Origin: Psammoneis japonica
Lineage: Eukaryota
Direction: 5' to 3'
NCBI GenBank assembly: GCA_008632985.1
Contig: QPGO01000001.1
Span: forward strand, 124,001 to 188,000
DNA: 64,000 bases
Part shown: in pieces, positions 1 through 33,789 of the stretch
Numbering within the stretch: the stretch's first letter is position 1
Layout of the letters: every line of letters begins with the position of its first letter
Notes under the pieces: generated by a model
What the model was told of the DNA's origin: nothing
Seen by the model: the letters and a program-made list of their open reading frames with translations, nothing else
Database searches by the model: none
Translations under genes and position numbers: made by a program

Positions 1-2214
1 GATGGTCCCGAGTTCGCGCGTGTGACGAAGAGGTTGAGGGATGCGAATGGCATTCCCATTGGGACAGCCAACGACAACCCAATCCTAGATGCTCGAATGT
101 GTCAGGTGGAGCATCCCGATGGTCACACTGCAGCACTTTCAGCTAACTCTATTGCCATGAACATGTTCGCACAGATTGACGAGGACGGAAATCGGCATGT
201 TCTGTTTGACGAGATTGCAGACTTCCGTGCGAATGGGGACGTCCCGGAATCCGATTTCTTTGAAACTGAGCAAGGCAACAAGAGGCGGCGCAGGACCACG
301 AAAGGATGGGAACTCTTGTTCCAATGGAAGGACAGCAGCACTGCTTGGGTTGACCCAAAGGACGCGAAGGAAGGATTCCCTGTCCAGGTCGCCGAGTTCG
401 CCATCCAACACAAGATCTCGAAGGAGCCGGCGTTTGCTTGGTGGGTTCCGCACTTAATGAGGACCCGCAAGCGTTCTATTGCGAAGGTCAAGTCAAAGCA
501 TTGGTTGAGAACCCATGAATTTGGCACACGAATTCCCAAGACTGTGAAGGAGGCACTGGAGCTCGATCGTGCGAACGGCAACACCTTGTGGCATGACACC
601 ATTTGCTTGGAAATGAAGAATGTTCGAGTTGCGTTCGACAAGTTCGAGGGGGACGAAACGGAGCTGCCTCCTGGGCACCAACAAATCGATTGTCACATGA
701 TTTTTGACATCAAGTTGGGAGAGAACTTTTGGCGCAAGAGCAGGATGGTTGCGGGTGGTCACATGACCGACACCCCAACTGCCATTGCCTGCTCCTCAGT
801 TGTTTCCAGGGATTCGGCAAGGATTGCCCTTGCACTTGCCGTGCTTGATGACTTGCAAGTCTTTGCCTGCAACATCCAGAATGCCTGCTTGACAGCGCCG
901 TGCCGAGAGAAAATTTGGACTCGTGCCGGTGAAGAGTTTGGCGCGGAACGCGGTGAGATTGTGATTGTAGTCAGGGCACTCTACGGATTGAAGAGCTCCG
1001 GCGCGGCATTCAGGGCCTTCCTGGCGGAGACGCTTTGTGATCTAGGATGCAAGCCTGGCAAGGCTGATCCCGACGTTTGGATGAGGCCAGCAGTGAAGCC
1101 AGACGGATTCGAGTGCTACGACCACATCTTGGTGTACGTCGACGACTTGCTGTCGATTAGTCATGAGCCGATGAAGACTGTGGATGGTGTCAAGTCGAAG
1201 TTCAAGCTCAAAGACGATAAAGCAGCGGAACCCGAATCCCACTTGGGCGCCAAATTGTCGAAGATGGACCTTGCTGACGGCACCACCTGCTGGACGATGT
1301 CAGCAGAAGATTGCTGCAAGGCGGCGGTCCGGAATGTTGAGGACAAATTGGCCAAGGAAGGAAAACGGCTGCCGAGCAAAGCATGCACACCTTTAAGTGG
1401 CGGATGCAAGCCGGAGTTGGACACTTCGGGCGAACTGGATGCAGAAGGCCTCAACCACTGCCAAGAGCTGATTGGCGTTTTGATTTGGGCCGTGGAATTG
1501 GGTGGGGTCGATGTCATTTTGGAAGTGTCAAATGTGTCGGCTCACCTTGCCTTGCCGCGCATTGGTCACTTGGAACAGGCATTGCATGTCTGTGCATGCC
1601 TCAAACAGGTCCCAAAGCGCCGGGTGGCGTTCGATCCTACGCATCCGGTCATCGACGAGTCTAGGTTCAAGGAGTGCGATTGGTTTGACTTCTGCTGAGA
1701 CGCGCAAGAGGCGATTCCCCCCAACATGCCACCACCTCGAGGTGACGTTGTGTCTGCTCATTGTTTCGTGGATGCCAACCATGCTGGTGACGCATCAACT
1801 CGCCGCAGTCATGCAGGCATTCTGACATTCCTGTGCCGAGCACCCATCATCTGGTGTTCGAAGAGACAGAACACCATGGAGACCAGTGCTTTTGGCGCCG
1901 AGATCGTGGCACTCAAGGTCGTGGTGGAATTTATTGAAGGTCTGAGGTGCAAGCTTCGAATGTTTGGAGTTCCTGTTGAAGGTTCTACAAACGTGTTCTG
2001 TGACAATGAAGCAGTGTACAAGAATTGCTCCATCCCGGAGTCTGCTCTCAAGAAGAAGCATCATTCCATTGCATGCCATCGCAACAGGGAAGCTGTTGCT
2101 GCGGGGACTGTTCGCCCAGCAAAGGAGGATACGGAAACTAACCTCGCGGATTTGTTCACGAAGGTTGTGACTTCGATTCGTCGCAATTTCCTGTTGGACA
2201 AGTTCACTCATTGA
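1..2214 (+). mobile_element. Ty1/Copia (CoDi-like) LTR retrotransposon pol fragment: RT + RNase H, mutated, 5' part outside window
   Basis: Motifs KSRMVAGGH, SSVVSRDS, ALYGLKSSG, VYVDDLL, FVDANHAGD, ETSAFGAE, FCDNEAV, NLADLFTK. ORFs 22..1698 and 1726..2214 are the same frame split by a TGA at 1696-1698 (expected F-Y-R-D reads F-C-*-D). Most conserved Tyr are Cys/His. Confidence 0.95.
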
Positions 2215-2374
2215 ATTGGCGGCAAATGGGGTTTGGATTTTGGGAATCGGGTCGGTGGTGATTTTCTTCCCCAGTGAGGGTTCACACCATGGCCAGCACG
2301 GAGTGTTAATGTGGTTGATTGCATTGGTTGAATTGTGCCTGTCAAGCACGCCCTTGGCTTGTTAGAAACATTTC

Positions 2375-2408
2375 AAGGGGACCGAAAGAAATCCGATGCA
2401 TCGGATTT
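2375..2408 (+). mobile_element. Polypurine tract and start of the 3' LTR of the Copia element
   Basis: aaggggac at 2375-2382 after the pol stop; the same gaggggac tract precedes TG in the second Copia (minus strand, 17420-17411). Followed by a 20-bp perfect palindrome aaatccgatgcatcggattt (2389-2408). LTR end not determined. Confidence 0.6.
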
Positions 2409-3180
2409 AGTTAGAGTGCTGTTGTTAGAGTGCTGTTGGCAATGGCTGGTGCTGAGCCAACCGTTGTGACGTGTCATCGGAAGGAAGCGTTGGATTTCCC
2501 TCCAATGGCGCTCACTTGTTAAGAGCAGTTGTAACAGGCCCAAGAGCATCTTTGGATCATTAGATTGTCATCATGCCAGCACTGTGAGCAGCTGAGCCAT
2601 TCGGCAGCTGGATTTGCTCGCGGACACATGTGCAAAATCTGCGTGGAAACCATCGTACAAACAGACCGCAACTGCGATTTTCCTTGCCATCTGCTCGAGT
2701 GAATGGCAGATGAGTCTCTGTGCAGAGACCATTGCAGGAGCCAAAAGATGTGCATCATGAAATCGGCACTGCTGTTGTTGATCTTGTGAGCCATGTGGCT
2801 CGAGAGCAAAAAGCTGCACTGCTGCAGTGTGTGACAGAGCCAAGGGCACACAACATGTCTGTCTGTGTGCAACAAAAGAAACTGGTGCAGCTCATGACAA
2901 AGTGTGCACAACTGAAATCCAACCCAAACACTTTTGCTCCCCATTTTGCTTGAGGAAGCTGCAGAAGCAGACTTGACATTGGACTGGCCAAAGGCCGGAG
3001 GGTCAAAAAGCTTTGTGGAGCACAAGGGGGGGATGGAGAAGAATGCTCTGGATCTGGAGGCAACCCCAGTGCAACAAGCTCAGCATGTCAGCGGGGTTGT
3101 GGGAGCCTTCAACAAAGTGGAGTTCAAGGAATCCTCAGCAATTGCCTTTCACAAACTTGGCAAAATGAGAGAACAGTGTT

Positions 3181-3208
3181 GGGGGGGGGGGGGGGGGGGG
3201 GGGGGGGT
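3181..3208. repeat. Poly-G run (28 nt)
   Basis: Direct reading. Confidence 0.95.
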
Positions 3209-4543
3209 TGAACAGCTGGCTCTGCTCTTTGAACAAACTCTGTCCATCTCTGTGCATTTGGGGCATTTGTCAGCACAACTTCAACGGATGAAAAAGATGC
3301 AGAGTCTGTCTGCATTTGGGGCATTTGGAGGACACAATTTCAATGGATGAAAAAGATGCAGAGTCTGTCCAGCATTTGCAAACATTTTCCAAATGCCACA
3401 ATTGCATTGACTGAGACAGACTGTTCCAGCGCAAATCCCACACAGGATTGTTCGAACAGCAGCTGCCCAGACTTGTCCCCCAGTGTGTCACCTGCACAAC
3501 TTGGAGCATGAGAGCTGTCCACAACCAACTTGCTGTCATCCCCAAACATGCAACAAGTGCCACAGATCAGGATGCCAAGGTGATGCAGCATGGCACACAG
3601 GCAATGAACTGTTCCATGCAAATCCTTGCAGCAACAAATTTGGATGCAAAAGTTGTGGTTTTCATGGCCGCTTGTTTCTTGGAGAACAAATTGGCTGCAA
3701 ACTTGCCCAGGAAATGGATGGTGATGCCAGTGATGGAAAAACACCCAGCAAGCAAGCAACAAACTGAGTTTGCATTGACATGACAAGTCACTGTGACAAA
3801 CTTGCCAAGAGAGGCTTGGGCGCATCTTTGGGAATCAGCTCCTCTATGTCACTGTGCACTGTGTGGTGCAGCCCCCAACCACACACAGGCTTGGGAAGGT
3901 CTGAGTGGTCAGGCTCCTCAGTCAACATGCACAAAGTGCCATGTCACATCTTGGACAAGGTGTCCCCACCCATTTTTTTTTGGCAAACATCCTTTTTTTA
4001 TTTGCTGGCGGCAAGCCTGATGTTTGTGTGTGGACATGCATGTGTGTCATGTGATGCAATCAATGCCAATGCATTGTCCATGCATGGACTCAGCATGAGT
4101 GAAAAATGCACATGCTCTGCAAATGGGGCAATCTTCAACATGCAGAACCCACAAGCAAAAATGCACCTGCATGCACGCATGTTTGAGGTTTCAAAAAATT
4201 TCACAACTTGTCGAAACGCAATGACAATGGTGACTGTGAACACAACACACTCCATCAACAGCCACAATCTCACCATGACACTGACACACATCAACAGCAC
4301 ACAATTTATTTCACATGTGTGTGCCTCAGTGTGCTTTGACATTGATTGGTTGCAGCGAAAACAGCTGAAATGTCAAATTTTTTTGTCCATCACTTTTTGA
4401 CTGCATGGCTCGACAACAAGCCCATTGCACTCTCACATGTCAATGCTGTTGATTGTTGTGGCTCTTTAAGACAACACTGTGTTGAGAAAACGGTGACTGC
4501 AGAGTCGCCATGGTGTGGTGGTTTCTGGGGTTTCCAGCTGCGG

Positions 4544-4768
4544 CATGCCAATGGCGAATTCAAAGTGCTGAAACTGAGTTGTGCTTGTTGAGTTAGCATG
4601 GCTGCCGCTTTGCGCATCATGTGCCAATCATTCTCAGTGGCGGGGCCACCAGCAATGTGCCAATGGCAAATTTGCAGTGCTGAAAGTGAGTCGTGCTTGT
4701 CAAGTTAGCGTGGCTGCCACTTTGCGCATCATGTGCCAACCATTCTCAGTGGCAGGGCCTCCAGCAAA
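4544..4768. repeat. Tandem duplication, ~113-bp unit x2
   Basis: tgccaatggc...gagttagc...tttgcgcatcatgtgccaa...cattctcagtggc occurs twice; differences are mostly CG/TG/CA exchanges. Confidence 0.85.
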
Positions 4769-5029
4769 AAAAAAAGGATGTTTGGCAGAAAAACCAGGCC
4801 TGCGGGGAGCATTGACCACTTGTCTTTCTTCATGGGTGTGTTGTGCACAGCATGTGCTGTTGCATGCTGCAGGGCCCCATTGCCTGTGGTGCACATGTGA
4901 GCAGGGCCCTGCTGCACTGCCAGGGCTGGCATTGGTCACTGTGTGCATGCACAGCAGGATGACCATTGTGTTTGATGGCTCATGCCATTTTGGGGGCTGC
5001 AGCGAGGTGCGTGGACACTCTTTTTTCCC

Positions 5030-7290
5030 CTGTTCATTGCCACCATGGTGCATTGCACAAAAGCACTTGATGTCATTGAGCAGAAACCAGAGAGTGAGAG
5101 GGTTGTTGGCATGGACATTGAATGGCCCACTGCAAAAAATCACGGGGTGTGGTGGTGTCAAACGGAAAGATGGGAACTGCTCAGCTTGCACATCGTGCCA
5201 AAGATGGCTTGACAAAATGCCTGGTGATTTCATTGGGAAAACAAGACAGCATCCCACCTTGTCTTCAAGCACTCCTGAATGACTCGGAGATTCCACTTGT
5301 GGGCATTGGAGCAACCAGTGACTTAAATTAAATCGGCCACAAATTTGCCTGTGATGAATTTGTGGACATGGCAAACGTTGAGAACCTTGAGACACATGCA
5401 CAAAAGCGACATGTTGCACAGAATGGCATGGTTGGGCTTGACTCACTTGTCAGACTTACATTGCATGACATGTTGGAAAAGCCAGCAAATGTGCAACTCT
5501 CTGATTGGTCGGCATCTCCATTGTCAAAAGAGCAGGTTGAACATGCCACTGTCAATGCCATCAAATCACTTGAGGCATGCCTGAAGATGAAAGAAATGCC
5601 GGATCTCACAACAAGGTTGTTGGAAAAGGACAATGTGGTGAACACCACAGTGGACACAGTTCCAAGTTGTGGCAGCCTGTCTTCCATGGTGACAAGAGCT
5701 GGATGGGGAAAAATTGTTGACGAAGCAACAGCTCCCATTCCAGAGAATTGTGCACCACCTGACATGACGGTTCATTGCACAAGGATCACGTTGAGAGCAG
5801 CGCAAGTTGACAAAGTTGCTGCACCTCATCTCACAGCTCCTGGGTTGAAGACAAGTGCGGGGGGTAAAGCATGCCTTGGCAACTTTGGCAAGACTCCTTT
5901 TTCCATTGTGCTGCTGCTGTCCATGCTGAAACAACACACGTCAAATCTAATGAGATCAGAGATGTCCAATCATGCCATGCCTGACAACAGCAACACAAGA
6001 GCTGTGCTGGCACCAGCACCTGTGCCAGCAAATGTGGAACAAGAAGATGAAGAAGCAACTGAATGTGAGGAGTTTGAGTCAACTGATGAAGAAGATGATG
6101 AAGACATTGACTCCTTGTTGGAAGCACTTGCCATGGCTGACATGGAGTGCACAAGGCAATGTGAAGCTTTGGCGAGAGGTGCCCAGGCTGGTGAAGTGTC
6201 CCTGTCACATCCTCACCTTGACAATCCACCCGAGACCAAAGAAATGCAAGACTTGCTCTTGTCCGTGAATGGAGATGGTTTTCACAGCATTGAGAGGCCC
6301 AAAATGCCGGTCTGGCACATGTTCTAAAAGGCTTTAAAAGTGGCAATTCATGATGCCAAATGTGAGGGGAACCAAAAGAAGCCACAAGAAGCAAAGCAGG
6401 CAATGGTCAAAGATGGTTTCACTGAAACCAACATTGATCTGGAAATGCATTGTTGAGTGAAATTCTTCCAAGACTGTGTTGACCGTCGGAAGCTGCCGCC
6501 AAGACAGCTGCACTGGTGAGTCCGTGCTGTGTGTGTGTTGTTGGGCGACAAAACAGACAGCGAGACAGAGCAGCCACTTTTCAACAAGAGAACATGGAAG
6601 GAGGCAAATCGTGTTCTGAAAGCCATGCTTGCCGGGTGCGTGTCCAATCCTCCTGGAGTGCCATTTCATGCGATCCGCCTCAACAGCTCAGGAGAACCAA
6701 TGAAGAACAAGTGCGGGTTTGACCTGATGAACTACAACCAGGGCACGAGTGATGCAGAGTCAACACACAATCAAATTGTCACAACTTTCGGTGTGTGGTG
6801 CACCGGGGTTGAAATGTCGGATTGTCTTCTGAGCAAACATCGGCTTCATCACAATCACAAAAGCTCTGAACCTTGGTGCAAGGGCTTTCCAAGGATTGGT
6901 CATTTTGACACTTGGCTGATGGATCGGGCACAACTCCTTGTTGAAGACAATCCTGAATGGACCAATTCCGGTGATTGCAAAACCACACCAGAGAGCTTTG
7001 GTGCAATTCCGTTGCACAGCCAGGAGCTTGCAAACACCATTGAAGATGTCCAGCTGAGGGAAAACTGGGGGAGGAAAACAAAGTCAGATTGACAAGAGAT
7101 CATGTGCATCTTGCGGCGGCCATGGGATCAAAACTGCTGTTCTCACCTGTTTTTGGGGTGGGGGAGATGAGACTGTTCTCCAGGCTTTATCCAGAGTTTC
7201 CTTTCGATGCCCACAAGTTTAGCATCAAATGAACAAAGCTCTGCAATGGTGTGACAATCTTTCCAAAGCTCAAGGTGCACCTGAACATGT
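5030..7290 (+). mobile_element. Degenerate DNA-transposon gene: WRN/DnaQ-type 3'-5' exonuclease domain fused upstream of a Mutator-like transposase region
   Basis: Exo motifs VVGMDIEW (ORF 4982) and LSDWSASPLSKEQVEHATVNA (YAAxDA motif with Y->H; ORF 5362). Then DGFH, PLFNKRTWKEA, SNPPG and QGTSDAESTH (ORF 6529), resembling DxxH...GTNxxExxH of Mutator-like transposases. Multiple frameshifts and stops. Confidence 0.65.
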
Positions 7291-7327
7291 GTTGCGATTG
7301 GCAGAAATGAAGCCAAAGGACCAAAGA

Positions 7328-7745
7328 CTTGAAAACTTGAACCAAACACTGCTGTCGGACGCATCCAATGGAGACTCAAGCAATGCTGCGATGGAACTCG
7401 TTGATGATGAAAATGATGAGACACCAAATGGCAAGGCCAGTTCAGTGGAAGGTCCATCTCAATGTCAACATGACCCAACATGTCACAACGCACATTGGCC
7501 TGTCCCCTTGGCACTGCGCAAGGATGCAATTCAAGGTGCAAGAACTGTTTTTGAAGCTCTTGAAAACTTGAACCAAACTCTGCTGCCGGTCGCATCCAAT
7601 GGAGACTCAAGCAATGCTGTGATGGAACTCATTGATGATGAAAATGATGAGGCACCAAATGGCGGGGCCAGTTCAGTGGAAGGTCCATCTCAATGTCAAC
7701 GTGACCCGGCATGTCACAACGCACATTGGCCTGTCCCCTTGGCAC
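7328..7745. repeat. Direct duplication, ~187 bp at 231-bp period
   Basis: cttgaaaacttgaaccaaac...cccttggcac at 7328-7514 and 7559-7745. Confidence 0.9.
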
Positions 7746-8294
7746 CGCACACTCTCAACTTGCCTTGCAGTGTGCTCATCACAATGACAAAATGCCAACC
7801 ACAGTTGGTGGAGTGCAGATGTGTCCTCTGAACCATGTGATGCCTGCTGGGGAAGAAAACCAAGCAACAACAACAAGAAGAGGTGAGCACAGTGGCAACA
7901 CCAGGAAACAAAGCAGTCATCAGTGCATGCACTGCATCCAACTTGGGGGAGACAAGGCCCTCAAATGCAAAGGCCGACACCCAAGGCCAGGACAAGAGAA
8001 ATGTGAGCACTTTCAAAGTGATGGGAGCCCACAAAACTTGCAGCATGCAGAGAACAGAAATCAAAACAAACACGTGCCATGAGCATTCACAACAATGGGA
8101 AACAACAGAGTTTCTCTTTGCTTTTTCTCTTTTCTTTTCTCTTCTTTCTTTTTCTTTCCTTTTTCTCCTCCCTCTCTTCCCTCTTGGTCTAAAATGTGCT
8201 CCAGCAACATGGCACAAAACCATTTCCAGCACGAAGATCAAATGTTGTGCCTGAAGGAACGATCGGCCCTTCGTGCAAAACTCATGTAGAAATT

Positions 8295-8720
8295 CTTTCT
8301 GTTTCAACATTGTGCTGTTCAAGAGTGCCACAGTGTTGGCTCATTTAAAGCAGTGTGCGCACAAGAGTTGTTTGCCAATGGCATGCAATGTGTTGGCATG
8401 TGCAGAAAGAGCAATGAAAGCACAATGTTTGGCACAAATTTTCTTTTCCTTTGGCAGTGCAGTGTTGCTTTTAAAGGATGACCACAGGCAGATGAATGCT
8501 GCTGCTTGCACACATGACTCTCTCTCTCTCTCTCTCTCTCTCCAGTGCACCATCCTCATTTAAAGATGTTTGTGAGGGTGTTTTGCAATGTTGAGACAAG
8601 CTGCACAAGTCTCAAACGGTTTGTCTTTCTGTTTCGACATTTTGCTGTTCAAGAGTGCCACAATGTTGGCTCATTTGATGCAGTGTGTGCACAAGAGTTG
8701 TTTGCCAACAGCATGCAATG
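8295..8720. repeat. ~330-bp repeat unit containing (CT)n, block 1
   Basis: ctgtttcaacatt...gagtgccacagtgttggctcattt and aaggatgaccacaggcagatga...(ct)n recur at ~8300/8630/10245 and ~8474/10076/10392. Confidence 0.85.
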
Positions 8721-10074
8721 CTCCAGGACATCACTTTCAAACAGCCCAGAGACCACCCCACCAGCCCAAGGATGGTCCTGTGGAGCATGCCATTTGCCAG
8801 ATCCTCACGGACCGGCTTTTTTCCCATCAACAGCCTCCATGATCTGGAGCAACAAACAATCCACACGGTTGCTGCCCAAGAGTTGCACGGTGTTGCTGAT
8901 GCCTTCCACAACTGTGGCTGCATTAGAAACCAGTGTGACAGAATGAGAAAAAATGGATGGAGGCCAACTCTGCAATGCTTTTTGCTGCTCGACAGAATGT
9001 GTCAATCCAACATCGACTGGCTTTGACAGCTTGTGCTGCTGCCGGCATTGTGAGAGGTGCCAACAAACAGATGCCATTTTTCAATCAAGTCTGCCATGCA
9101 GCCTGTTGCTCTGTTGGACACAGTGGCAAATCCTGCAATGCCAAGTCTCAAGTCCTTCCGCGGGGATGTCACACATTGGCTCCTGCTCTCGTCGCCACCT
9201 TGACTGGCATCCATCATGCCATTCCCAATGTTGTCTCCAATGACACCTTGCAGCATTTCAAGCTGCCTCTGTGGTGCAGCCCCAGTGGCCTGAGTCTCAA
9301 AATCATTTGGGTGCTTTTCAAGGCAGGCATCCTTCATGATTTTGGTTCTCTGGATGCAGAGAAATGGAAATCACAGCATCAGCAGAGCCACAATGAAAAG
9401 AACATGCAAACAACACTGCCTTCAATGGACTTGCCTCATGCATTGTGCAGCTTGCATCGCATGGGCAGCAACAAATGGCACAAGAACACATCCATCCAGT
9501 CTGTGTTCCAGCTGCGTTTGCACGCTGCCGCCATCGCACCCGACATTTTGAGATTGTGGGTCTTGGCGACAGCATGCTCCTCTGCCAGTCCTTGGAAGTT
9601 AGCCTTTGCAGGCCTCTCCATAAATTCTGCCAACAGATTGCGTTTGTTTTCTGTCATCATCACACTGCTTCCTTTCAGTGCGGTGAAGCCGATGTCATCT
9701 TCAATGCGACCCTTGCCCTGCAGCTCAACCGACGTCTGCTCCGGTGGTGGTTGAGCAGACGCTGCAGATTTGGGATGTCTCTCATGCCTGTGTTGACAGC
9801 AGAATGTTTGTTGGGAGCTGTGACATTGTTTGTTGAGAGCATGGACAAGACGAGCAACGCCATTGTCCATCGTCAACCTTGAGGAGAGTGGATCGAGTGA
9901 TTCTGGTGTTTTCCTTGGTCTGTCAGTCATCAGAATTGTGTGTGCTGAGAAGTCCGCAGGTTCTACGTGATGCCAAAACCGTGCCACTTTTGTTGAACTT
10001 TTGTTGAGGTTGAGTGAAAAATGTGTGGGAATTTTGCTGCTTTTAATTGTGACAATTGTCAGGCATTTTGCAGC

Positions 10075-10116
10075 AAAGGATGACCACAGGCAGATGAGTG
10101 CTGCTGCTTGCACACA

Positions 10117-10158
<42 letters not shown>

Positions 10159-12864: not shown

Positions 12865-15800
12865 TGGATGGGGATGACTCACAAGATGATGGGAGAAGCT
12901 TGTCCCAGCATGAAGAATGTGCTCTGGACAGGAATTTTTTCTGCCAGTTTCTTTTGTCACAAGCAAAAATGGAGCAGATTCAGTCTCAGCAGAGGGCGAC
13001 TGAAATCTTCTGGGTGATGGAGGCTGAGGTCGGCTCCAGGCACACCCAGCCCAGGGTTCACCATGCAGAGGACAGGCACCCCTCAGCTGCTGCTTCTGAG
13101 GCTGTCAAGCCCCCTGTCATGAGCTCAAAAAAGGCTGTGGTGGAAGAGCATGAGTTTTCAAACTGCAAGATGCAGTGGCGGGCCAAAGGCTTGGGTGAAT
13201 TCTCCCCCACAACAGGCCGGGCAATGGGCACTTGCTCAACTGAAAAGTCCACAGATGGCTTGAGAAAAGTTTGCAAATGCTGCATGGGTGTCTTTGTTTG
13301 CTCCCTTTGTGGAGAGTTTCTTGAAAGGCCCCGGCAGCCTTGGACAGGAAGGAAGAAGTTTGGGTCACCACTCCCTCCCAAGCTGGTGTGCCCCAATCAT
13401 GAGCAAGAGTCAAAATTGGAGCACAAAGAGTGCACCTGCCTGCTGACCTGTCAAGAAGTCAGTGCCAACTCTTGGCTCATGAGCCACAAAGGGAGGCACA
13501 ACACCCAAGACCCCCACCATCGAAGCTCCCAATGGCAGCACAAGGAAAGCTTGTGGAGCTTGTTGTCAGAGCTGCTCCTGAGTTGACTCCAGCACAGCTG
13601 AGACTTGGGGCTGCAACCAGGCCTCGAGTGTCACAGATTCATCCAGCTCTTCACAACAAAGACCATGTGAAAAACATGAGGAAGAAGATCTTAAAGGAAA
13701 CAGGGATGAGCTCCACCATTGCCAGCCTTGTGAACTTCCAAAAGGAAGTGAACCAGAGCTTCATTGTTTCGGAGCAGCTCACCACAGATGATGCTCACAT
13801 TGTCATGCAAGACCAAGACATGATTGACATGCTGAGAGAACCAGCATCACCCATGCAAACCAACTCTGTGGAGGGATTTGTTGTTGATGCAGACTTCCAG
13901 AGGCAGATCAATGTCACCTTCTCTTTGCAGTTTGATGCAATGTTGCAGCAGTGGGCCCCAGTCTGCATTTCCATCTTGTTTGGCAAAACTTCTGCACACT
14001 GCAAAGCCCACTGGCGCAGGGTGCTTCAGTGCTGCCAGGCCAACACCTGGGATGATTTTTTGAACAACTTCCAAGGAAACACAAGCGACTTTTCTGATGC
14101 CATTTGAAATGGCTTCTTTGCAGCCATGCAGGAGCTTGCACTTGAGCACCATGACAGGGAAGCCACAGATGAGGAGATTGCCCAGTTTTACAACTTTTGT
14201 GACGTTCACTTTGAGAGGTCCCGCATGAGGGTGGCCAGAAACTCTGCTGTTGACATTCCAGACAGGGAGGATGACTTCAACCACCATGTCAACAGCTTGA
14301 GGGGTTTTGGCCAAGGAGACTTTGCTCAGTTTGAAAAGTCCTGCAAGCTGCTCATCAGATCTTGCCCAAATGCCAAGTCATGGCTGAAGTTTGAAAAGTC
14401 CTGCAAGCTGCTCATCAGATCTTGCCCAAATGCTGAGTCATGGCTGAAGTGGTTTCTCAACCCAAGGAGGGCAAGGATTTTCTTTCCTGCACGCGCAGGC
14501 AGCTGGATGAGCTGCAGCAGCAGAGGCATGAAAAGCTCTGCACAGACACAAATGCACAGGAAAATGTTGGCAAACAGTTTCAGTGCAGTGCACCAAAGAC
14601 CAATTTGACCATTGGAGAAGCAGTTCTGCATGCTTTCAAGTTCTGCAATGCGAATGTCTTTGACAGAAAGGCAGCAGCCAGGGGAATTTCACGCCATTGT
14701 GGAGCTTTCAAGACCATCCAGTCAGGCTGCAAGAAGCCCAAGAGCAAAAGAAAGCAAGGGAAAAAAACAAATGATGGAAGAGCACCAGACACCACAAAGC
14801 AGCTGACAAGGCCAAAAAAGAAGCCTGCACCCAAAAAGACGCCAGGAGAGGCAGCAAAGAAGCAGGCAGGAGGCACCATGAAGCAAACAAGGATCAAGTT
14901 CAAGACCCAATCATCAAAGAAAACTGCACCCAGGCATGCTGTGACCTCATTCCAAGGCATCCCATGGAATGTGCCCAGCAAAGGAGACCATCCTGGCATC
15001 AACAACACTTGCAGGCTGGACAGCTTGTTGACTTTGCTGTTCTCACTTCACAAGCAGCAGCTGATGAAAAAGCCAATGGTGGAGCTGGCTGATCCAGACA
15101 ACCTCCTGTCCAAGACATTCAGCTTGATGGAAAAGGGTGAGTTTGATGATGCCAGGCACCTTTGGGTGAGTGACAATTCTGTTCTCAAGGACATGAATCG
15201 CGAAATCAGAAAGAGCCGGTTTGCCAAGTTCAACATGTTTGGGTCACTCTTTGAGGTTTTTGGCCCACCAGTCAGTCCAGGAGCTCCCTTCCCAATGAGC
15301 CAGTCATTTCAAGCCTGCTTTGATTTCTTTGAAAAGTGTGTTGCAGGTGACTCTTGGTGTCCTTCATGCTTCTCTGATGAGGATGAAGATGGGCGTCCAA
15401 GGAAAAAGATCTTCAACACATTCCCCATTTCAGAATTTGACAGCGCCAGCCACTGCCTCCAAACTTGCCTTGAGAGTGACTTGCAGAAGTGTGGGAACTT
15501 TCAAGGTGGTGTTGGTGAGGGTGAGGATGCAGTGATGGTTGCAAGTGACACCCCAGAGGAGAGGCAATGCTGCAGATTCCTGAACACCACTGAAAAAGTC
15601 ATCACGAAGTTCCCACACCTGATGGTTTTTACAAGCAACCCAAAACCCGGTTTTTCACTTGGAGATTTGGAGACAGAGTTTTCCCTTTGTGGGAAACAGT
15701 TTGGCTTGAGAGGGACCTTGAATGGAGATGGTGGAGTTCACTTCACTTCATGCATCAGAGGAGAGGCAAGCTGGATCTTTTGTGATGGAATTGGGGATGA

Positions 15801-16396
15801 TTTCCCTGTCTGGGAGAGGTGGATGTTTCGCGAACAAGACCAGGTTCTTCAGGGAGAGCACAGCTCCCAGATGGCCATGGCCACAGTGTGTGAGGTCTCA
15901 GACTTGGAGGTTGGAGAGGAGAACATCAAGCCAGGGGAGCAAGAGCAAAGCAAGCCAGGAGAGGAGGAAGAGCATTTGGAGATTGGAAAGGAAAGCAACA
16001 AGCCAGGGATGCAAGAGCAAAGCAAGCCAGGAGAGGAAAAGCAAGGCAAGCAACACAAGAGAAAGAGAGTGGCCTTGGGCAATGGTGCAATCAAGTGGAA
16101 ACAAGTGGCCAGAGCAGTCAATCAGGGAGAAGGGCAAGAAAGGGGGGAGATTGCCAACATGCAGGGGCTGCGGCCAGCTCCTCTCTCAGAATGAAAACAG
16201 GCTTCTCTGCGCCTTTCATGAGAAAAAAGGACACAAGCTCAAGACAGAATGGCAGCTGCACTGCAGGCTGACATGCATTGATGGCAAATTGGATGAGAGC
16301 AATCTCTTCAAAAATTGTTTGAAAAAGGGGAGCACCAAGCAGTTCGAGACCTTCAAGGGCAGCTTCAGCAGGCTGCCAAAAATGTGCAGCATGTGA
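12865..16396 (+). pseudogene. MULE transposase: GCM-like zinc DNA-binding domain + DDE core + USP-like cysteine-peptidase region
   Basis: KCCMGVFVCSLCG...RP...CPNH...C...HKGRHxHPRPP (GCM-like); MQTNS, TSDFSDA, FCDVHF (CxxH), TDTNAQE (catalytic E), NDGRAPDT; NNTCRLDS and GVHFTSCIR...WIFCDG. Spread over frameshifted ORFs 12705, 13430, 14126 and 14440. Confidence 0.78.
14328..14450. repeat. 60-bp tandem duplication inside the transposase
   Basis: Two copies identical except CA (14374-75) vs TG (14434-35). Confidence 0.95.
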
Positions 16397-17411
16397 TTTG
16401 AGGCTGAGGTTTTCAAGTTTTCTGCAAACAACAACTCTTTTCTTTGTCCAATTTAGAACTGCTTTGTCTGCACATTGTTGGCTTTTGTCATGTTCATTGG
16501 AGCCTTGTCCACTGCTTGGCGCAATGCATTTCATCATTTGCTGGCACACACCTGCATGGAATGTATGGCACAGTGCACAACACACTTGCAAAATTTGTCC
16601 ATGCTGCAGCTGGTGTGGTCCCACGCAGAAATGCATGCAGGGTCATGGTGCACTCAAGTGCACTTGAAGTGCACTTGACAAGGTGCACTTTTTTGACTTT
16701 TCTTTTTGACGACGGCCATTTTTTTTGTTGGACGCAATTTGAAAACGACTCGATGCCATTTTTAATTCTGCAGGAGCAGAGTTTGAGAGAGAAGGAGCAT
16801 GAGAGAGTGTGTGCATGAGAGAGCGTGCATGTGTGCATGCATGTGTTGCAACAAAAGCATGTTGGCGATGGCAACAGCATGCGTGTGAATTGCAACAATG
16901 GTTTCACAATCGGTGCTTGACTCATGCAACAACATGAAGAATCAACCCCCAGCATGTCAATGCCGAGCATGACAATGATGTGTTCCACTCACGCAGCTTT
17001 AATTTCTTGGCAGAAAACCCTCCAAACATGGCAGTTGTTGTTGTTGTTGATTTGTGCTGGCGTTGTTGTTGTTTTTCAAGTTTTTTTTTAGTTGTGGGAT
17101 TCTTCAGCGAGGTGATGATTTGTGGCTGGAATTGCATGACTCAAAAATCGTCTGCGAACGCAAGGCGAATGGATGCAAAAAAACTCTCTCTCTCTCTCTT
17201 GCTCTGTGTCTGCCGCATGCTCTCCATTGAACAAATTACCCCGCACAGTGGTTGCGTGCTCTAGAGGGTAAAGACCAAAACTAAAACATGTGACATGGTG
17301 CCTCCATTTCTCAGAATTGTGATGCTTGTCTCGGATGGACTTCGGTCTGCTCATTTTGCCGACGTGGGGCACACATCACTGAATTTCACATCTCCACATG
17401 GCAAATTCTTC

Positions 17412-18690
17412 AGTCCCCTCAAGTCAATGAAGTGGACAATGAATTGGCTTGATCCAGTTTGCTCTCTCTGGCCATGTTTGGCCATGCCAATGTGACAAGG
17501 AAACCCCAACAACCTGCTCTCTAAACCCCATGGTGCATGAGGGTGCCGGTGCAATGCCAAACCTTGGTCATTGTTGATGTTGTGCAATGTCATGCCTGCG
17601 AGTCCATCTCACTTGATGCCACCACACATGATCTCAGTCGCAAGATCAGCTGGGTTGCATTCTGATCAAATGTGGATGCGCTCCAGCTCTGGGTGGGACC
17701 TCGCACTGCTGCACTGTGACATCAACAGTTTTTTGGATCGCGTTGCATGTCGCGCACGTGCATTTCTGCATGTCACATTCTCCGAAATTGTTTCATGCTC
17801 CCTGTTTTGCAAAGCCAAAGGCTTTCCATTTTCAACATTTGTGAGAATGAAAATGCACTGGGTGTGTTCTTCAATGTCTGAAGAACACACCCGGGCAAAC
17901 TGTCAATGATGTGCTCCAAGTGTGGAGGAGGAAATGCATTTGCAAAATTGCCTCTTTTTCTGTTGGCGATCATTTGTGTTTTCATTGCAGCATGAATTTG
18001 CTGTGGAGCTTGCACGTAGAATTCTGTGGGCCAAATGTCTCATGCAGCCCCACCTTGGACTGGAACCCGTCTGTGTCCAGTGAGTGACTCACCCATTGCT
18101 GCCATTTCTCTCATGGTGTGGCGGCATGCTGATTTCGACTTCTTCTTCAAAGTTGACTCTGGGCTTTGGGTGTTGTGGACAACTGACATGTTGTCACCAC
18201 AAATGTGCGATGGACCACTCAGCAGTGCACCCATCATTCTAAGCTCATGCCTTGGACCTCGCAAAGCTTCCATGCCCTGCTTCACAGCCACAAACTCAGC
18301 TCCAAAGACTGAGGTCTCAATGGCACTCTGTCACTCAGAAAACCAGGCAACCAATGCCATGTTTAAATGTGCAAAGCAGCCCACACAGGAGCATCTTGTC
18401 AGCTTGTCATTGGCATGGTTGGAATGCACAAACAAGTGTGGGTCAACATCTTCACCCAGAGCTTCTGGTGCATTGGGCAGAACAGCTTCCTTCACATCCC
18501 CACAAAATGCCTTCCTGCCGCATTCCTTGAAGTCAGACATGTCCATTTCCGGGTGTGTCAGATCAAACACCAGCCTTGCATCATGTCTGGCCTTGAGGCA
18601 TCCACACACATGCAGGATGGCCTCAAGATGGCCCTCCCTTGGCACAGTGAGGAATTGGGCAAGCTGTGAGGTGTGCAGCTGGAAGCGCTT
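17412..18690 (-). mobile_element. Second Copia (CoDi-like) fragment: RT end, RNase H, PPT and LTR start; interrupted by a MITE
   Basis: PREGHLEA, RLVFD, FVHSNHAND, ETSVFGAEF, ICGDNMSVV, PESTLKKK, GH|I*SECNPADLAT. PPT gaggggac followed by TG at 17412 on the minus strand. Confidence 0.9.
17674..18072. mobile_element. MITE copy A (399 bp, ~26-bp TIR, 2-bp TSD gt), TA-depleted
   Basis: Ends ggatgcgctccagctctgggtgggac / gccccaccttggactggaacccgtct. Excision with one TSD restores the Copia RNase H frame. Termini are homologous to 46956-47347. Confidence 0.88.
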
Positions 18691-19574
18691 GCACAGCAGG
18701 TGCCAGGCACCCTGCAAAAACACCAGAGTTGTTTCTGAGCAACTTGTCTGAGGCCATTTTGTCTTTTGGAGCCAAAGTGCAGGCATGGCATTGGTGGTGC
18801 CAGAGATGTCTCAAAACCATGTGAACCAATGAGCCAACAAAAATGCTTGCGCATGATGACGCATCAGAGGAAGGAACTGTTTGGGTTCAGTGTCCATGTG
18901 GGTTTCTGCTTGTTTCCTGCAGCTTTTTGTAATTGTCATTTAGGTTGTGCAACTTTTAATGTAGATTTCCACCTGCTTCCACTGGCACAAGTGCATGCTG
19001 AGCTGTCCAGAGAATGCCATCATTTTGTTCCCTTGTGTGTGTGCCACTCACACAAGGGAATTGTCAGACTGAAAGAAAAGCCACAAAGTCACCTTGGCCC
19101 AGCCAGCCCTCTCTGCCATGTCTGCACAGGATGGGCATTTTGAGCCAAAGGCCATGGACAAGCAAAGGTTGCTCCATGCTAAAAACACAACACTTGAAGA
19201 AATTGCTTTTGTGAAACACATGCTGGAGCTGGGAGAAGTTTGTGACAAGGAGCTCTCCAGAAAAGAAGAATTGGTGTGTGCTGCAGCTGCAGCAGAAAGT
19301 TGGCTGCTGCATGACCAATGTGGGCAAACTTGAGTGGCCAGATCCCACTCCTGTTGAATCTCAGGCACAAGCTCATGTGAAAGGAGGTGGCCAGAAAACA
19401 CCCACCTATCTGGTGGCAGCATGCAAGCAAGTGCGGTGCCTTGCTGGAAGAAGATCAAGCTGAAACCAAGGGCTTGTGCAATGCCTCAAGAAGAGGCCAA
19501 AGTCAAGGAAGGGAGATGATTTGACACCAAACCCAATGCACCACCGCAACTGCTAATCCAGCATTTCATGTCAT

Positions 19575-21150
19575 CAAAAATTAACAGCTGGCAGTGATGG
19601 ATCTGTCAAAGACGTCGCCACCTTTGGGTGGACGATTGCTCCAGATGGAACACCACTGGAGGATTGTGCGGGACCAGCATTTGGCAGAAGACCATCATCA
19701 CACCGGGCAGAGGCTTGTGGCATTTTGTCCCTTCTTTGATTCATTTGCCGGTTCATGGAACATTGCAGAGTGGAGAGGCTTCTGGAAATGGAGCCGCACT
19801 GCAACAACAAAAGCTTTGGTGTCTTGTCTCGAACAACTCACCACAATCCTTCCAGCTCCAACCTCAGAGTGACAAACAGATGAAACAAGAGATTTCCATG
19901 TCAGACATCATGGAGCCAACAGTGTGTCTCCTGACTGGGATGTCATTGATCAGATTCTACGCACACAGCTTGAGATGAAGAGGAAACTTGTAACCAACTC
20001 GTTTGCACAGCCGCCACCTGTCAAATGGGTGAAGGGCCATCAAGATTGGCATGCTCCAATGCATGCCCTGCCCCTCAATGCTAGAGTCAATGTCTGAGCG
20101 GACCAATTGGCAGGGGCATGCCAAGGCCAGTGCCCTTGGGATGCCACAATGGCACTGCCCTTTCCAAATTGTCACTCACATTTGAGTCTCCCAGATGGCA
20201 CATTGACCGCAGGTTGCAAACATCATCTCAGACACGCGGCCACCACCCCACAATTGCTGCAATGCATCATTGAACACAATCAGTGGAGTCCAGGGCCAGA
20301 GGTGACAGAGCTGATTGACTGGGATGCTCATGCCATCCTCATAAAACGTCATTCCAAATGACACGTCGGAACAGTCAAGCCAGTTCACGATCTTCTCCCC
20401 ACTGATGAGATCGTCCATCAATGCAACTCGGCAAGACCTCACCAGTGTCTTCATTGTGAGCATCCCATGGAAGATGGGAACCATGTGCTCCACTGTCTGC
20501 ACAATGAATCATGGCAAAGAAAGTTTCTGCAAGGTTTGAGGAGGTGTTGTGACCAAATCGACACCATGCCAACCCTTCGGGACTTCTTGTCACAGTCCAT
20601 TGAAGCATGGTTTCACAGTGAGATGGTTTGTCTTGAAGATGTTGATTGCAGATGCAGAGTTCTGTGGCAGGCTCAATCCGATGTGGGGTGGTGGCAAGTG
20701 TTTGGTGGAAGGCATTCCCTTCTGTGGAATGTCATTCAATCTGGATGTCTGAGAGATTCTGGGATCCTTCGTCAGTGCCAGGAGGAGAACAAACATCCAC
20801 CGAACTGGACAGTGCAGATGGGAACGTTCATCTGGCAGCAATGGCGGGAATCGTGGGAAGAGCATGACAAACACATCCACGGCCATGATGCAGAAACTGG
20901 ACAATCTTCGCAGAGATGCAAAGTGGAGGCTGAGCTGACAGCTGCATGCAACAAATGTCAGGAATGCTTGGCAAAAGACCGAGGAGTTCTGCTTGATTCT
21001 GTGGCAGAACACAAGACCTTTGCCACTGCACGCACACAAAATTGGATTTCTGTGGTTGAGCCCAGACTTAAGGAAAGCCTCAAGGAAGCCAAGAGGCCAG
21101 TGACATGCAGCACATGCACCATTGCCAGTCATTTCCATCGGGCATCTCCT
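19575..21150 (+). mobile_element. Non-LTR retrotransposon 3' remnant (RNase H + C-terminal CCHC region)
   Basis: SDGSVK..TFGW, CAGPAFG, SSHRAEACG (from SSYRAExYG), WVKGHQD, IDWDAH, VHDLLPT, CLHCEHPMEDGNHVLHC. Frameshifted. Confidence 0.82.
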
Positions 21151-21921
21151 CCGGGAGACACCGCTTCATGCCAATTGCACACACTTCTGCTGCACCTCCA
21201 AGCAGGGTTTGCTGGAAGTGTGGGTTAGCTGGCACTGGTGTTGCTGGGCAAAGGTGCAACAGCACTTGAAATGATTGATTTGGTTTTTTTTGACACTGCA
21301 ACCACTCCTGCCAGAGTCAAAGAATGACATCCCAAGAAGAAGCTGAATTCAAAGATGGGTGATGACCCGATGCCACAGCCGCTCCTGCCAGAGCCAGAGA
21401 GTGAAAACCCTGGTGCCCCACCAGCCAGGCAACAGCAGCATCTAAGATGTGCTCTCCCACCTGTGTCATGAGATTCAGCTCCAGGTGGGACCTTGTGCAG
21501 CTGGACTGGTCTTTGGACATGTGCCACATGTTGCTTGCTCACACTTGTGTGCATGTTCTCCCACAAAATTTCCCGTGCTCCTTCCTGCTCTGAGGGGGGG
21601 ACAAAGGCTTTTTAATCCATGCATTTGTGAGAGTCAAAATCAGCCAGGTGTTGGTTGTGGCATCTGTTCTGTCATGTTCTCAATGGGAGTCATTCGGGCC
21701 CTCACAGCCATTGTGTGTAAATTACATGGGAGAGCGCCAGAAATGGCTGTCGAAATCGGCACAAAACGTAGAGTAATCCGTAATCATAACCACACTTTAC
21801 TTTCTTGGCTGCCCCCTCAGACTCCCCAGAACTCGCAAACGCGCAAGCATTTGTATATGACCAATAAAGCAAGGGCCAAAATAGTGGTTTGTTTGAAAAG
21901 ATTGACTTTACTGTTAAGCAG

Positions 21922-33780: not shown

Positions 33781-33789
33781 GGGTGCTCT

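Follow-up and report, generated by a model that had tools for sequence, protein, structure and literature searches.

Organization of the window

The window, that is, the whole stretch of 64,000 nucleotides analysed here, contains genes, transposon relics and satellite arrays. Its features are as follows, with dinucleotide frequencies given as observed/expected ratios (o/e).

1..2500, plus strand: relic of a Copia-type polyprotein, truncated by the start of the window (Pfam RVT_2, E=4.8e-13)
2501..21500: TA- and CpG-depleted domain 1 (500-bp bins with TA o/e 0.00-0.14 and CpG o/e 0.03-0.64)
10885..11679, minus strand: relic of Ist1, an ESCRT-III regulator, inside domain 1 (PF03398, E=2e-19)
14437..16191, plus strand: coding relic of 585 aa, unnamed family, 84 relatives, called a LINE in the preliminary description
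23501..28000: depleted domain 2 (TA o/e 0.00-0.10, CpG o/e 0.03-0.64)
24617-27287: satellite array with a unit of about 187-190 bp, inside domain 2
31705..41000: depleted domain 3 (last dense TA at 31704, last dense CG at 31592)
about 31750-34520: related satellite arrays inside domain 3, about 66% identical to the array at 24617-27287
41001..47330: genic control block, not stripped (TA o/e 0.22-0.68, CpG o/e 0.41-1.24)
43569-44093: genic tandem repeat of 201 bp, spared (TA o/e 0.40, CpG o/e 0.84)
47331..48730: depleted island of 1.4 kb with genes on either side (only two TA, at 47735 and 48300)
48731..60214: genic control block that is spared and contains FG-GAP paralogues of 81-83% identity
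60215..64000: depleted domain 5, which continues up to the end of the window (from 60501, TA o/e 0.00-0.08, CpG o/e 0.07-0.25)

TpA has an o/e of 0.06 over 38 kb of repeat blocks, compared with 0.46 in the adjoining genes. TA o/e is below 0.2 in 77 of the 128 bins of 500 bp, and these bins cluster at about 2501-21500, 23501-28000, 31705-41000, 47331-48730 and 60215-64000. The near-absence of TpA had been reported for positions 1-21700, where base composition predicts 1403 TA and 100 are counted (o/e 0.071). The depletion is even stronger than described, and the limits assigned to it were too narrow, with further blocks reaching 64000. An exact recount agrees with the report of a single TA, at 15630, between 14191 and 16453. 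A TA-free run of 1.44 kb has p ~4e-20 given the genic TA frequency; the longest run is 1785 bp (25892-27677, within domain 2). In bins 32001-34000 of domain 3, TA o/e is 0.00-0.06 and CpG o/e 0.03. The TA-poor blocks are also depleted in CpG, which had gone unmentioned before, the exception being the Copia relic at 1-2500.

The composition of the stripped blocks shows where the lost dinucleotides went. Stripped blocks have less TA (0.41% versus 3.10% in genes) and less CG (1.39% versus 5.81%) but more TG (11.12% versus 7.78%) and more CA (10.96% versus 7.61%); the total of the four is nearly constant (24.3% in genes, 23.9% in stripped blocks). To account for the residual TA in stripped DNA, the forward rate must exceed the reverse rate at least 54-fold, versus 5-fold in genes. 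Two ORFs free of Tyr were located at 14437-16191 (585 aa) and 5332-6324 (331 aa), close to the 584 and 321 aa given earlier. Since a sequence without TA automatically has no Tyr codon, such ORFs are not independent evidence. The altered motifs described earlier were found as well: NACL at 880, KHW at 496, HCQE at 1456, WCSK at 1852, SSHRAE at 19695 and HADD at 63461, the last lying beyond the flagged span 1-21700.

A modified base in heterochromatin could in principle produce such a pattern as a sequencing or base-calling artefact. Of the words sampled from 21500-31400, where TA-free sequence makes up about 45%, public run X1 contains 86% as exact 31-mers. The individual k-mer depth of the X1 contigs listed is about 65-80, and their summed depth in domain 1 ranges from 35 to 48,501 per bin. 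The library type of X1 is unrecorded and the run may be the source of the assembly, so that it does not count as an independent confirmation. Nevertheless, a modified base read in a strand-dependent manner would yield inconsistent k-mers, and a deterministic miscall would not leave TG in one and CA in another paralogous copy or satellite monomer at the same site, as is seen here. An artefact is almost certainly not the explanation.

Direction and specificity of the substitutions

Substitutions were polarised against relatives in three unrelated sequences, the Copia relic, the pseudogene-like Ist1 relic and the unnamed transposon-like ORF of 585 aa. Conserved Tyr is retained in 2 of 23 columns, compared with 431 of 540 for other conserved residues (Fisher p=1.9e-12); 13 of the columns have become Cys, 5 His, 2 Phe and 1 Ala.

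The Copia relic has 1848 relatives with up to 66% identity. Its 16 conserved Tyr columns comprise 2 kept, 9 changed to Cys (TGY), 3 to His (CAY) and 2 to Phe; the catalytic YVDD at 1135 preserves its Tyr. The Cys and His residues are not an ancestral feature of the family, as all 120 Copia relatives compared keep at least 79% of the conserved Tyr columns. The Ist1 relic also matches human IST1 structures (E=8e-14) and is a relative of a cellular gene, not a transposon protein. Its best relatives reach 56% identity, and the legible organism names among them are all diatoms except "Tiarin...". Over its initial 35 residues the ORF does not align in register with Ist1. The four conserved Tyr have all been replaced (by Cys once, His twice and Ala once), and other changes include R to C (TGY) twice, L to S (TCA) and I to T (ACA). 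The 585-aa ORF has Cys (TGT) in place of all three conserved Tyr but retains 75 of its 96 other conserved columns.

The family of the 585-aa ORF is probably transposon-borne. The best of its 84 relatives has E=1.2e-53 and 43% identity, and the sole family lead is an atlas match to NOF-FB/MULE-type DNA transposons (score 0.94). Neither the ORF nor any of 12 different relatives (9 scanned with Pfam at E<=0.001 and 9 at E<=10) gives a Pfam match to reverse transcriptase, endonuclease or MULE, and the HADD region at 63461 matches no domain at all. The earlier LINE and CRE labels thus have no Pfam support even at E<=10.

Among 63 polarised single-base changes in the three coding relics, A:T>G:C occurs at TpA in 30 of 33 cases and G:C>A:T at CpG in 11 of 14. 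The TpA changes comprise 20 A>G and 10 T>C on the sense strand. The losses are therefore real substitutions away from TA, specific to TpA and on both strands, as had been proposed. Error-prone repair synthesis of the Pol eta type, put forward in the preliminary description and recruited to silent chromatin in this scheme, makes A>G at WA (AA or TA); the inclusion of TA and the use of both strands would fit. However, AA/TT is undepleted (o/e 1.24/1.22 in stripped blocks versus 1.19/1.16 in genes), A:T>G:C outside TpA accounts for only 3 of 33 cases, and A>T and A>C together for only 4 of the 63 changes. This candidate is accordingly disfavoured and highly improbable.

Depleted domains and spared repeats

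The edges of the domains are abrupt, and TA and CG edges fall within about 100-200 bp of each other. The island at 47331-48730 has a CpG-poor span at 47372-48530, within which a second Ist1-like fragment lies (47458-47678, matching 11105-11314 of the Ist1 relic at 69.7%). Repetition alone does not mark a sequence for stripping. The paralogues at 49081-51718 and 56582-59215 are 81% identical and have TA o/e of 0.43/0.48 and CpG o/e of 1.09/1.07, and spared gene paralogues in general share 81-83% identity over 1.2-2.6 kb. The process had been called repeat-domain-specific, which is too simple a description, as the gene paralogues and the genic tandem repeat are left intact. The sharp coincident edges, together with these spared repeats, argue for targeting of domains.

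Both strands of whole domains are affected. Domain 1 contains 2088 TG and 2121 CA; the TG:CA ratio reaches 1.20 in 23501-28000 and lies at 0.97-1.02 in the other four depleted blocks. Strand-coordinated runs were not found (z from -1.55 to +1.53). Among 14 aligned satellite monomers, TG/CA mixtures occur in 7 of 180 column pairs, other double-transition quartets numbering 0-2 each. As the satellites are stripped, TG is about equal to CA and no strand-coordinated runs are seen, the process does not depend on an RNA intermediate or on retrotransposition.

Alternatively, ADAR- or ADAT-like A-to-I editing of retroelement RNA could be fixed in DNA by reverse transcription. The excess of A>G over T>C (20 versus 10) on the sense strand of the polarised coding sets is in its favour, and yet the remaining 10 of 30 TpA changes are antisense. 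The ranking inferred for 3' neighbours (T>C>G>A) is unlike the 3' G preference of ADARs. Satellite arrays without coding capacity are stripped to the same degree, and whole domains are continuously depleted with nearly equal TG and CA. According to the preprint of Mettrop et al. (bioRxiv 10.64898/2026.01.13.699255), known A-to-I editors favour a 5' U, which fits TpA, but the events it reports in Bigelowiella natans occurred in integrated single-copy viral DNA. Editing of RNA is thus a very unlikely source.

The Copia relic separates the loss of TA from that of CpG, with TA o/e at 0.18 and CpG o/e at 0.86. Expressed as -ln(survival), the loss in this young element amounts to 1.38 for TA and 0.04 for CpG. 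A Copia that has lost TA yet not CpG indicates that coupling to 5-methylcytosine is not obligatory. In metagenomes, all 80 related Copia loci show TA o/e between 0.51 and 0.92; because neither these loci nor the 120 relatives are stripped, the loss of TA is a property of the host rather than of the element.

The same observations bear on biased mismatch correction, in which a T:G glycosylase or very-short-patch-type repair over-corrects to G:C in methylated domains. Over-correction of the very-short-patch type is the attributed cause of CTAG depletion in E. coli, and repair recruited to methylated DNA would fit the overlap with domains of CpG decay. Such repair should, however, make CpG from CpA/TpG at least equally, whereas CpG is depleted (o/e 0.24 in stripped blocks versus 1.01 in genes), and it does not account for TA loss without CpG change in Copia. 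The rate of about 6e-7 per site per generation given for B. natans in the preprint also seems beyond replication errors alone. We consider this explanation scarcely credible.

Proposed process and chemistry

The window is very probably shaped by TpA>TpG/CpA mutation at the DNA level, confined to silent domains and near saturation, alongside CpG decay and of the same kind as in B. natans. In the proposed process, A:T>G:C transitions affecting one strand or the other would turn TpA into TpG or CpA inside sharply bounded silent domains, which hold relics of transposons, satellite arrays and a dead copy of a cellular gene. It would run beside ordinary CpG>TpG/CpA decay, be separable from it and proceed much faster. 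The target would be the state of the domain, probably silenced, methylated chromatin, rather than duplication as such. The process may be active at present and may serve in defence.

The chemistry has nearly an even chance of being adenine deamination, with a DNA-acting ADAT2/TadA-like deaminase producing inosine. To our knowledge, no natural enzyme has been established that deaminates adenine in double-stranded DNA. Another possibility, which we regard as unlikely, is that thymine at TpA is oxidised in silent chromatin by a TET/JBP-type dioxygenase, the resulting 5-hydroxymethyl- or 5-formyluracil pairing wrongly with G and leading to T>C. By sequence, A>G on one strand is indistinguishable from T>C on the other. 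In dinoflagellates 5-hydroxymethyluracil is concentrated at TpA, and A:T>G:C changes arise from 5-formyluracil, both in keeping with this route; the known products are nonetheless weakly mutagenic against the near-saturation seen here, and we know of no report of oxidised thymine in diatoms, at which our literature search was not aimed. The authors of the preprint (10.64898/2026.01.13.699255) prefer adenine deamination. A flank model of surviving TA (R2 0.92), in which newly arisen TAs may bias the survivors, gives the 3' neighbour order cited above and can equally be read as a rule for the base 5' of T, purine being favoured. The model predicts His at about half of the A-preceded Tyr codons, where 0 of 4 are seen, and the direction of the rule is unconfirmed.

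Relation to known systems

The earlier statement that no such system had been described is out of date. In their 2026 preprint on mutation-accumulation lines of B. natans, Mettrop et al. measured de novo TpA>TpG/CpA hypermutation of integrated viral and other foreign DNA at about 1000-fold background, and proposed an ADAT2-like candidate and a defence-like reading (bioRxiv 10.64898/2026.01.13.699255). Both cases involve exclusively A:T>G:C transitions at TpA, on both strands and confined to regions, and the preprint describes TpA-poor, CpA+TpG-rich clusters enriched for reverse-transcriptase and DDE domains. The window adds a second lineage for hypermutation of this kind, here saturated: B. 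natans is a chlorarachniophyte (rhizarian), whereas the present host, judged by the named relatives of its sequences, is most likely a diatom (stramenopile). That unrelated algae share a TpA-erasing signature hints at a wider way of disabling invading DNA. The depletion is far deeper here (TA o/e 0.06 over 38 kb) than in the NCLDV region of B. natans (Rho 0.45). Satellites and a dead copy of a cellular gene are among the present targets, and CpG is co-depleted. The words "CpG", "satellite", "flanking" and "diatom" do not occur in the main text of the preprint, whose supplementary tables may hold flanking-context data. The rate was measured de novo in B. natans, while the present case is known from assembled sequence.

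As in fungal RIP, heavy context-specific transitions wreck the coding of repeated or foreign DNA and leave compositionally distinct domains. RIP, however, works in the opposite direction: its C>T changes, usually CpA>TpA, generate TpA, which here is destroyed; and unlike duplication-triggered RIP, the process leaves the gene paralogues untouched. The low CpG, the G:C>A:T changes at CpG and a slower CpG decay where flanks are G+C-rich resemble 5-methylcytosine deamination, and published abstracts report that diatom transposons are methylated. TpA cannot be removed in that way, and Copia loses TA without losing CpG. Deaminase-driven hypermutation of selfish elements is shared with ADAR- and fungal ADAT-type RNA editing and with APOBEC, which act on RNA or reverse-transcription intermediates; here, in contrast, repeats of a non-transcribed type are changed on both strands and over whole domains.

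Two compositional states

The window is divided between two compositional states, depleted blocks (38,000 bp) and genic blocks (23,500 bp), the latter serving as non-stripped controls. The depleted set used for the composition figures comprises 2501-21500, 23501-28000, 31501-41000, 47501-48500 and 60001-64000.

Dinucleotide content and G+C of depleted and genic blocks (o/e, observed/expected ratio)
TA: depleted 0.41% (o/e 0.06); genic 3.10% (o/e 0.46)
CG: depleted 1.39% (o/e 0.24); genic 5.81% (o/e 1.01)
TG: depleted 11.12%; genic 7.78%
CA: depleted 10.96%; genic 7.61%
Sum of TA, CG, TG and CA: depleted 23.9%; genic 24.3%
G+C: depleted 0.485; genic 0.480

If TA and CG were converted into TG and CA, the four-dinucleotide sum should stay nearly constant, as it does. 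AA, TT and AT are much less affected than TA in the depleted blocks. Between 1 and 21700, the span in which the preliminary description placed the loss of TpA, 100 TA are counted versus 1403 expected. TA o/e is nevertheless below 0.2 in 77 of the 128 500-bp bins of the whole window, and the depletion therefore reaches well past that span. On recount the single TA (15630) between 14191 and 16453 is exact, as is the lack of tyrosine in two ORFs (585 and 331 aa), which follows automatically from the lack of TA. The altered protein motifs quoted in the preliminary description are all present; one of them, HADD at 63461, lies beyond the flagged span. Stop density is 0.0275 per codon versus 0.034, with TGA commoner in stripped DNA. 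The long ORFs were considered as an artefact of missing stops, but since TGA becomes more frequent, ORF length is inflated only slightly, and the 585-aa ORF is a real relic.

Polarity and specificity of the changes

The polarity of the changes was tested on three unrelated coding relics, which were compared with relatives from public data.

Retention of conserved residues in three coding relics
1-1695, plus strand, Copia polyprotein: 120 relatives (58-66% identity); conserved Tyr kept in 2 of 16 columns, other conserved columns kept in 273 of 311
10885-11679, minus strand, Ist1 relic: 120 relatives; conserved Tyr kept in 0 of 4, others in 83 of 133
14437-16191, plus strand, 585-aa ORF: top 32 of 84 relatives (best E=1.2e-53); conserved Tyr kept in 0 of 3 (3 Cys), others in 75 of 96

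Taken together, tyrosine is retained in 2 of 23 conserved columns and the other conserved residues in 431 of 540 (Fisher p=1.9e-12). The Tyr of Copia are replaced by nine Cys (TGY), three His (CAY) and two Phe, and those of the Ist1 relic by one Cys, two His and one Ala, so that the pooled outcomes include 13 Cys and 5 His. Further changes in the Ist1 relic are R>C (CGY>TGY) twice, L>S (TCA) and I>T (ACA). The objection that active copies may themselves encode Cys or His at these positions does not hold, as each of the 120 Copia relatives keeps Tyr in 26 or more of the 33 columns where it is conserved. The median Tyr content of these relatives is 3.5%, versus 0.53% in the window copy, and every one of 80 related Copia loci taken from metagenomes has a TA o/e of 0.51-0.92.

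A substitution spectrum was drawn from the replacements explainable by one unique base change (n=63); Ist1 residues 1-35, which are out of register with the family, were left out.

Spectrum of polarised changes (n=63)
TpA context: A>G 20, T>C 10
CpG context: G>A or C>T 11
Other contexts: A>G or T>C 3, G>A or C>T 3
Transversions, any context: 16

The A:T>G:C transitions are thus confined almost entirely to TpA (30 of 33), and both TpA>TpG and TpA>CpA occur (A>G 20 times and T>C 10 times, as read on the sense strand). Similarly, 11 of the 14 polarised G:C>A:T changes sit at CpG. Error-prone synthesis of the Pol eta type, put forward in the preliminary description, mutates A in TA and in AA alike and yields some A>T and A>C. 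In the depleted blocks, however, AA and TT are undepleted (o/e 1.24 and 1.22) and A>T plus A>C make up 4 of the 63 changes, which renders this candidate highly improbable.

One of the two conserved Tyr surviving in Copia is the catalytic YVDD Tyr of reverse transcriptase (1135); its survival may be due to chance, or to selection on the copy while the mutator was already acting. Among the twelve closest relatives of the 585-aa ORF, three (P0299, P0304 and P0310) contain 1.0-1.4% Tyr versus 2.2-3.3% in the other nine, and may be partly TA-stripped copies in other public assemblies.

Extent and targeting of the stripping

Stripping is not limited to retroelements. Two related arrays of satellites with a unit of about 187-194 bp, at 24617-27287 and about 31750-34520, rank with the most heavily stripped sequence (TA o/e 0.00-0.06; CpG o/e 0.03 at 32001-34000). 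In 14 aligned monomers, mixtures of TG and CA are found in 7 of 180 column pairs, versus 0-2 for every other double-transition quartet. Such mixtures are the expected trace of an ancestral TA or CG resolved independently in each monomer; CG is retained in one of the seven, so the ancestral state may have been either. Paralogue differences were also seen in X1, a public sequencing run that shares sequence with the window. Among the 40 displayed of 688, there are three adjacent TG<>CA double swaps, and sites that read TG or CA in the window are still TA or CG in some copies. Over most of the stripped DNA TG and CA are in balance, their ratio lying at 0.97-1.02 in four of the five depleted blocks and at 1.20 in 23501-28000. 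No strand-coordinated clusters were detected by a runs test (z -1.55 to +1.53), which native TG and CA dilute.

These observations bear on RNA editing followed by retrotransposition, a route that is restricted to sequences with an RNA intermediate and produces A>G on the sense strand only. In the spectrum, A>G at TpA does outnumber T>C at TpA. However, satellites are stripped, 10 of the 30 changes at TpA are antisense, the two strands are symmetrical and whole domains are stripped continuously, and this route is accordingly very unlikely.

The edges of TA and CpG depletion are sharp and coincide within about 100-200 bp. For instance, an island that is TA-free at 47331-48730 is CpG-poor at 47372-48530. 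Within the one 64-kb window the loss is confined to foreign or selfish DNA, with the rest normal in CpG (o/e 1.01) and at a TA o/e of 0.46. The spared DNA includes four tandem, intron-free paralogues encoding FG-GAP/Kelch beta-propellers:

41101-43701, minus strand, FG-GAP/Kelch paralogue
50516-53158, minus strand, FG-GAP/Kelch paralogue
53471-55633, minus strand, FG-GAP/Kelch paralogue
58007-60028, minus strand, FG-GAP/Kelch paralogue

FG-GAP paralogues with 81-83% identity across 1.2-2.6 kb, and likewise a genic 201-bp tandem repeat, keep a TA o/e of 0.28-0.48 and a CpG o/e of 0.84-1.09. Sequence duplication is not the trigger. The stripping noted in the preliminary description is real and the core of its reading is supported, but the process is not simply triggered by repeats; judged from the sequence, it appears to follow domain state instead.

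CpG loss together with TpG and CpA gain in the same DNA (CpG o/e 0.24), and the R>C changes (CGY>TGY) of the Ist1 relic, resemble 5mC deamination, and cytosine methylation of diatom transposable elements has been reported. The same CpG loss contradicts biased T:G repair as the origin of the TpA signature, an explanation to which we give very little credence. The two losses are separable, since the Copia relic (1-2500) has lost TA with CpG near intact: its TA o/e is 0.18 and its CpG o/e 0.86, against medians of 0.72 and 0.89 in the related loci, or a -ln(survival) of 1.38 for TA versus 0.04 for CpG. The TpA process thus seems to run beside the decay of methylated CpG, and faster. The ratio of forward to reverse rates, as estimated from residual TA, would be at least 54 in depleted DNA versus 5 in genes.

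Residual CpG in the depleted domains is commonest in G+C-rich flanks (CCGG 0.52, CCGC/GCGG 0.46, GCGC 0.39) and rarest in ACGA/TCGT and ACGG/CCGT (0.15), a pattern expected for 5mC deamination. The TA o/e of 0.46 in genic DNA, e.g. 28001-31500 and 48731-60000, is below that of every one of the 80 Copia loci of other organisms, and the 40 TA<>TG/CA differences between FG-GAP paralogues are frequent relative to TA abundance. A weak leak of the process across the whole genome could account for low genic TA, as could ordinary avoidance of the dinucleotide. A second fragment resembling the Ist1-like relic (11105-11314) lies at 47458-47678 (69.7% identical), inside the 1.4-kb TA-free intergenic island. 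The Ist1 piece is hence itself part of a repeat that is dispersed, whether as a pseudogene that was duplicated or as a piece of a gene that was captured.

Flanking context of surviving TA

The TA that survive are not random with respect to tetranucleotide.

Survival of TA in depleted DNA relative to genic DNA, by tetranucleotide
TTAA 0.59; CTAA/TTAG 0.43; CTAG 0.22; GTAA/TTAC 0.17
CTAC/GTAG 0.09; ATAA/TTAT 0.07; GTAC 0.06; ATAG/CTAT 0.04
ATAT 0.017; ATAC/GTAT 0.011

A per-strand multiplicative model of survival accounts for these values with an R2 of 0.92, the survival by the 3′ neighbour of A being 0.77 for A, 0.46 for G, 0.22 for C and 0.12 for T; an equivalent reading takes the complement of the base 5′ of T as the determinant. 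The direction that the model predicts does not hold in the small polarised set, where A-preceded Tyr codons gave four Cys and no His, and four of the five His outcomes are at G-preceded Tyr codons. The flank effect is for this reason taken as a real observation and not as an enzyme preference.

Authenticity of the sequence and the host lineage

A sequencing or base-calling artefact would place TG and CA where the DNA has TA. X1 contains 86% of the sampled 31-mers of 21500-31400, a stretch of which about 45% is TA-free, and a share of 86% is unreachable unless X1 carries TA-free DNA. The same run covers 30 of 30 bins of 12001-32000; its single contigs, in the list of run contigs, have a k-mer depth of about 65-80, and the depths summed over a bin rise far above this where repeats accumulate. 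This agreement argues against consensus or base-calling error, though X1 is perhaps the assembly's own source and thus no independent replication. TG/CA differences between copies argue against a deterministic miscall, and an artefact is extremely unlikely. Two further public runs, X3 (a sediment metagenome) and X19, overlap the gene near 29-31.5 kb in part, with a few small pieces besides, and give no independent view of the TA-free DNA. None of the runs listed as carrying this sequence is an RNA run.

Among the matches listed for Ist1, all legible organism names are diatoms (Grammatophora, Seminavis, Nitzschia, Thalassiosira, Cylindrotheca and Striatella) except a partial 'Tiarin...'. A Fragilaria crotonensis protein is in the cluster of a Copia relative, and Bacillariophyta appears in the atlas row for a 548-aa ORF (29641-31284, plus strand). 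On these relatives the host is most likely a diatom, and not Bigelowiella.

Comparison with described systems and possible mechanism

To our knowledge, genome defences that turn A:T into G:C at one particular dinucleotide were unknown before a preprint of 2026. In mutation-accumulation lines of Bigelowiella natans, that preprint describes 231 of 302 single-nucleotide mutations as lying in two integrated viral regions, nearly all of them A>G or T>C and all at TpA, at a rate about 1000-fold over background and in only some lines (Mettrop et al., bioRxiv 10.64898/2026.01.13.699255). In the same account, TpA-poor, CpA+TpG-rich genes or clusters are enriched for reverse-transcriptase and DDE domains, and an ADAT2-like protein is put forward as candidate enzyme (10.64898/2026.01.13.699255). 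The suggestion of the preliminary description that no such system had been described is thereby outdated. A term search of the preprint's main text returned none of 'CpG', 'satellite', 'flanking' and 'diatom' (10.64898/2026.01.13.699255). Our literature search, with little coverage of subscription journals, found no report of the TpA signature in diatoms or any lineage beyond B. natans.

The window is like B. natans in that A:T>G:C changes are confined to TpA, fall on both strands and are restricted to certain regions. It is unlike fungal RIP, which by C>T converts CpA to TpA and so creates the dinucleotide destroyed here, and which is triggered by duplication, whereas paralogues and a tandem repeat are spared in the window. 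The best supported explanation, and probably the correct one, is a DNA-level, TpA-specific A:T>G:C mutator of the same kind as in B. natans, which would be confined to silent domains. As to its chemistry, the leading idea, held tentatively, is that an ADAT2/TadA-like enzyme would deaminate adenine, yielding inosine. A U-A step is what every known tRNA A34 deaminase reads in its natural substrate, and this would account for the TpA rule. Oxidation of thymine at TpA, which is inseparable by sequence from adenine deamination, is an unlikely source of the changes.

A signature of a kind described only once before is now found, saturated, in a second major lineage. The 2026 report rests on one chlorarachniophyte; with a host that is most likely a diatom, the process is no single-species peculiarity, and its reach includes transposons, satellites and dead gene copies, not integrated viruses alone. 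Diatoms dominate ecologically, and as some of their species are open to genetics, a search for the enzyme behind the process would be possible. If a DNA adenine deaminase does exist in nature, it would be of interest to genome biology and base-editing technology. It is conceivable, though doubtful, that a DNA mutator specific for TpA and targeted by chromatin is common to diatoms and chlorarachniophytes, as a 'reverse RIP' defence that would outpace 5mC decay and drive silent DNA TA-free; a natural deaminase that attacks adenine in double-stranded or transiently opened DNA could be its agent. A mutator shared in this way would be an immune-like system of long standing, perhaps present throughout SAR, and nature's own source of chemistry for adenine base editing.

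Coding content of the window

TA-free DNA, in which TAA and TAG stops are all but absent and Tyr codons are lacking, blinds the homology-based annotation of transposable elements. In Pfam scans of window ORFs (24, 133 and 10 ORFs in partly overlapping sets), matches were limited to RVT_2, Ist1 and the FG-GAP/Kelch genes, and most ORFs in depleted domains had none. The labels LINE RNase H (19695) and CRE reverse transcriptase (63461) in the preliminary description found no support in these scans. An atlas lead points to MULE for the 585-aa ORF family; Pfam gave no confirmation of this identity (9 relatives at E<=10), and a PDB sequence search for the family gave 0 matches at E<=1.

The one FG-GAP/Kelch gene searched (41098-43701) has 7 relatives found at up to 41% identity, bacterial-looking and several with a T9SS C-terminal sorting domain; the family may have arrived by horizontal transfer and then been amplified locally. 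The 548-aa ORF has no Pfam domain. A relative about 95% identical occurs in RNA-like runs of two other organisms, and pieces of the ORF are found in several marine sediment, seagrass and macroalgae metagenomes. Its nearest atlas clusters are unnamed or, as a lead at a score of 0.89, 'Crinkler family (fragment)'.
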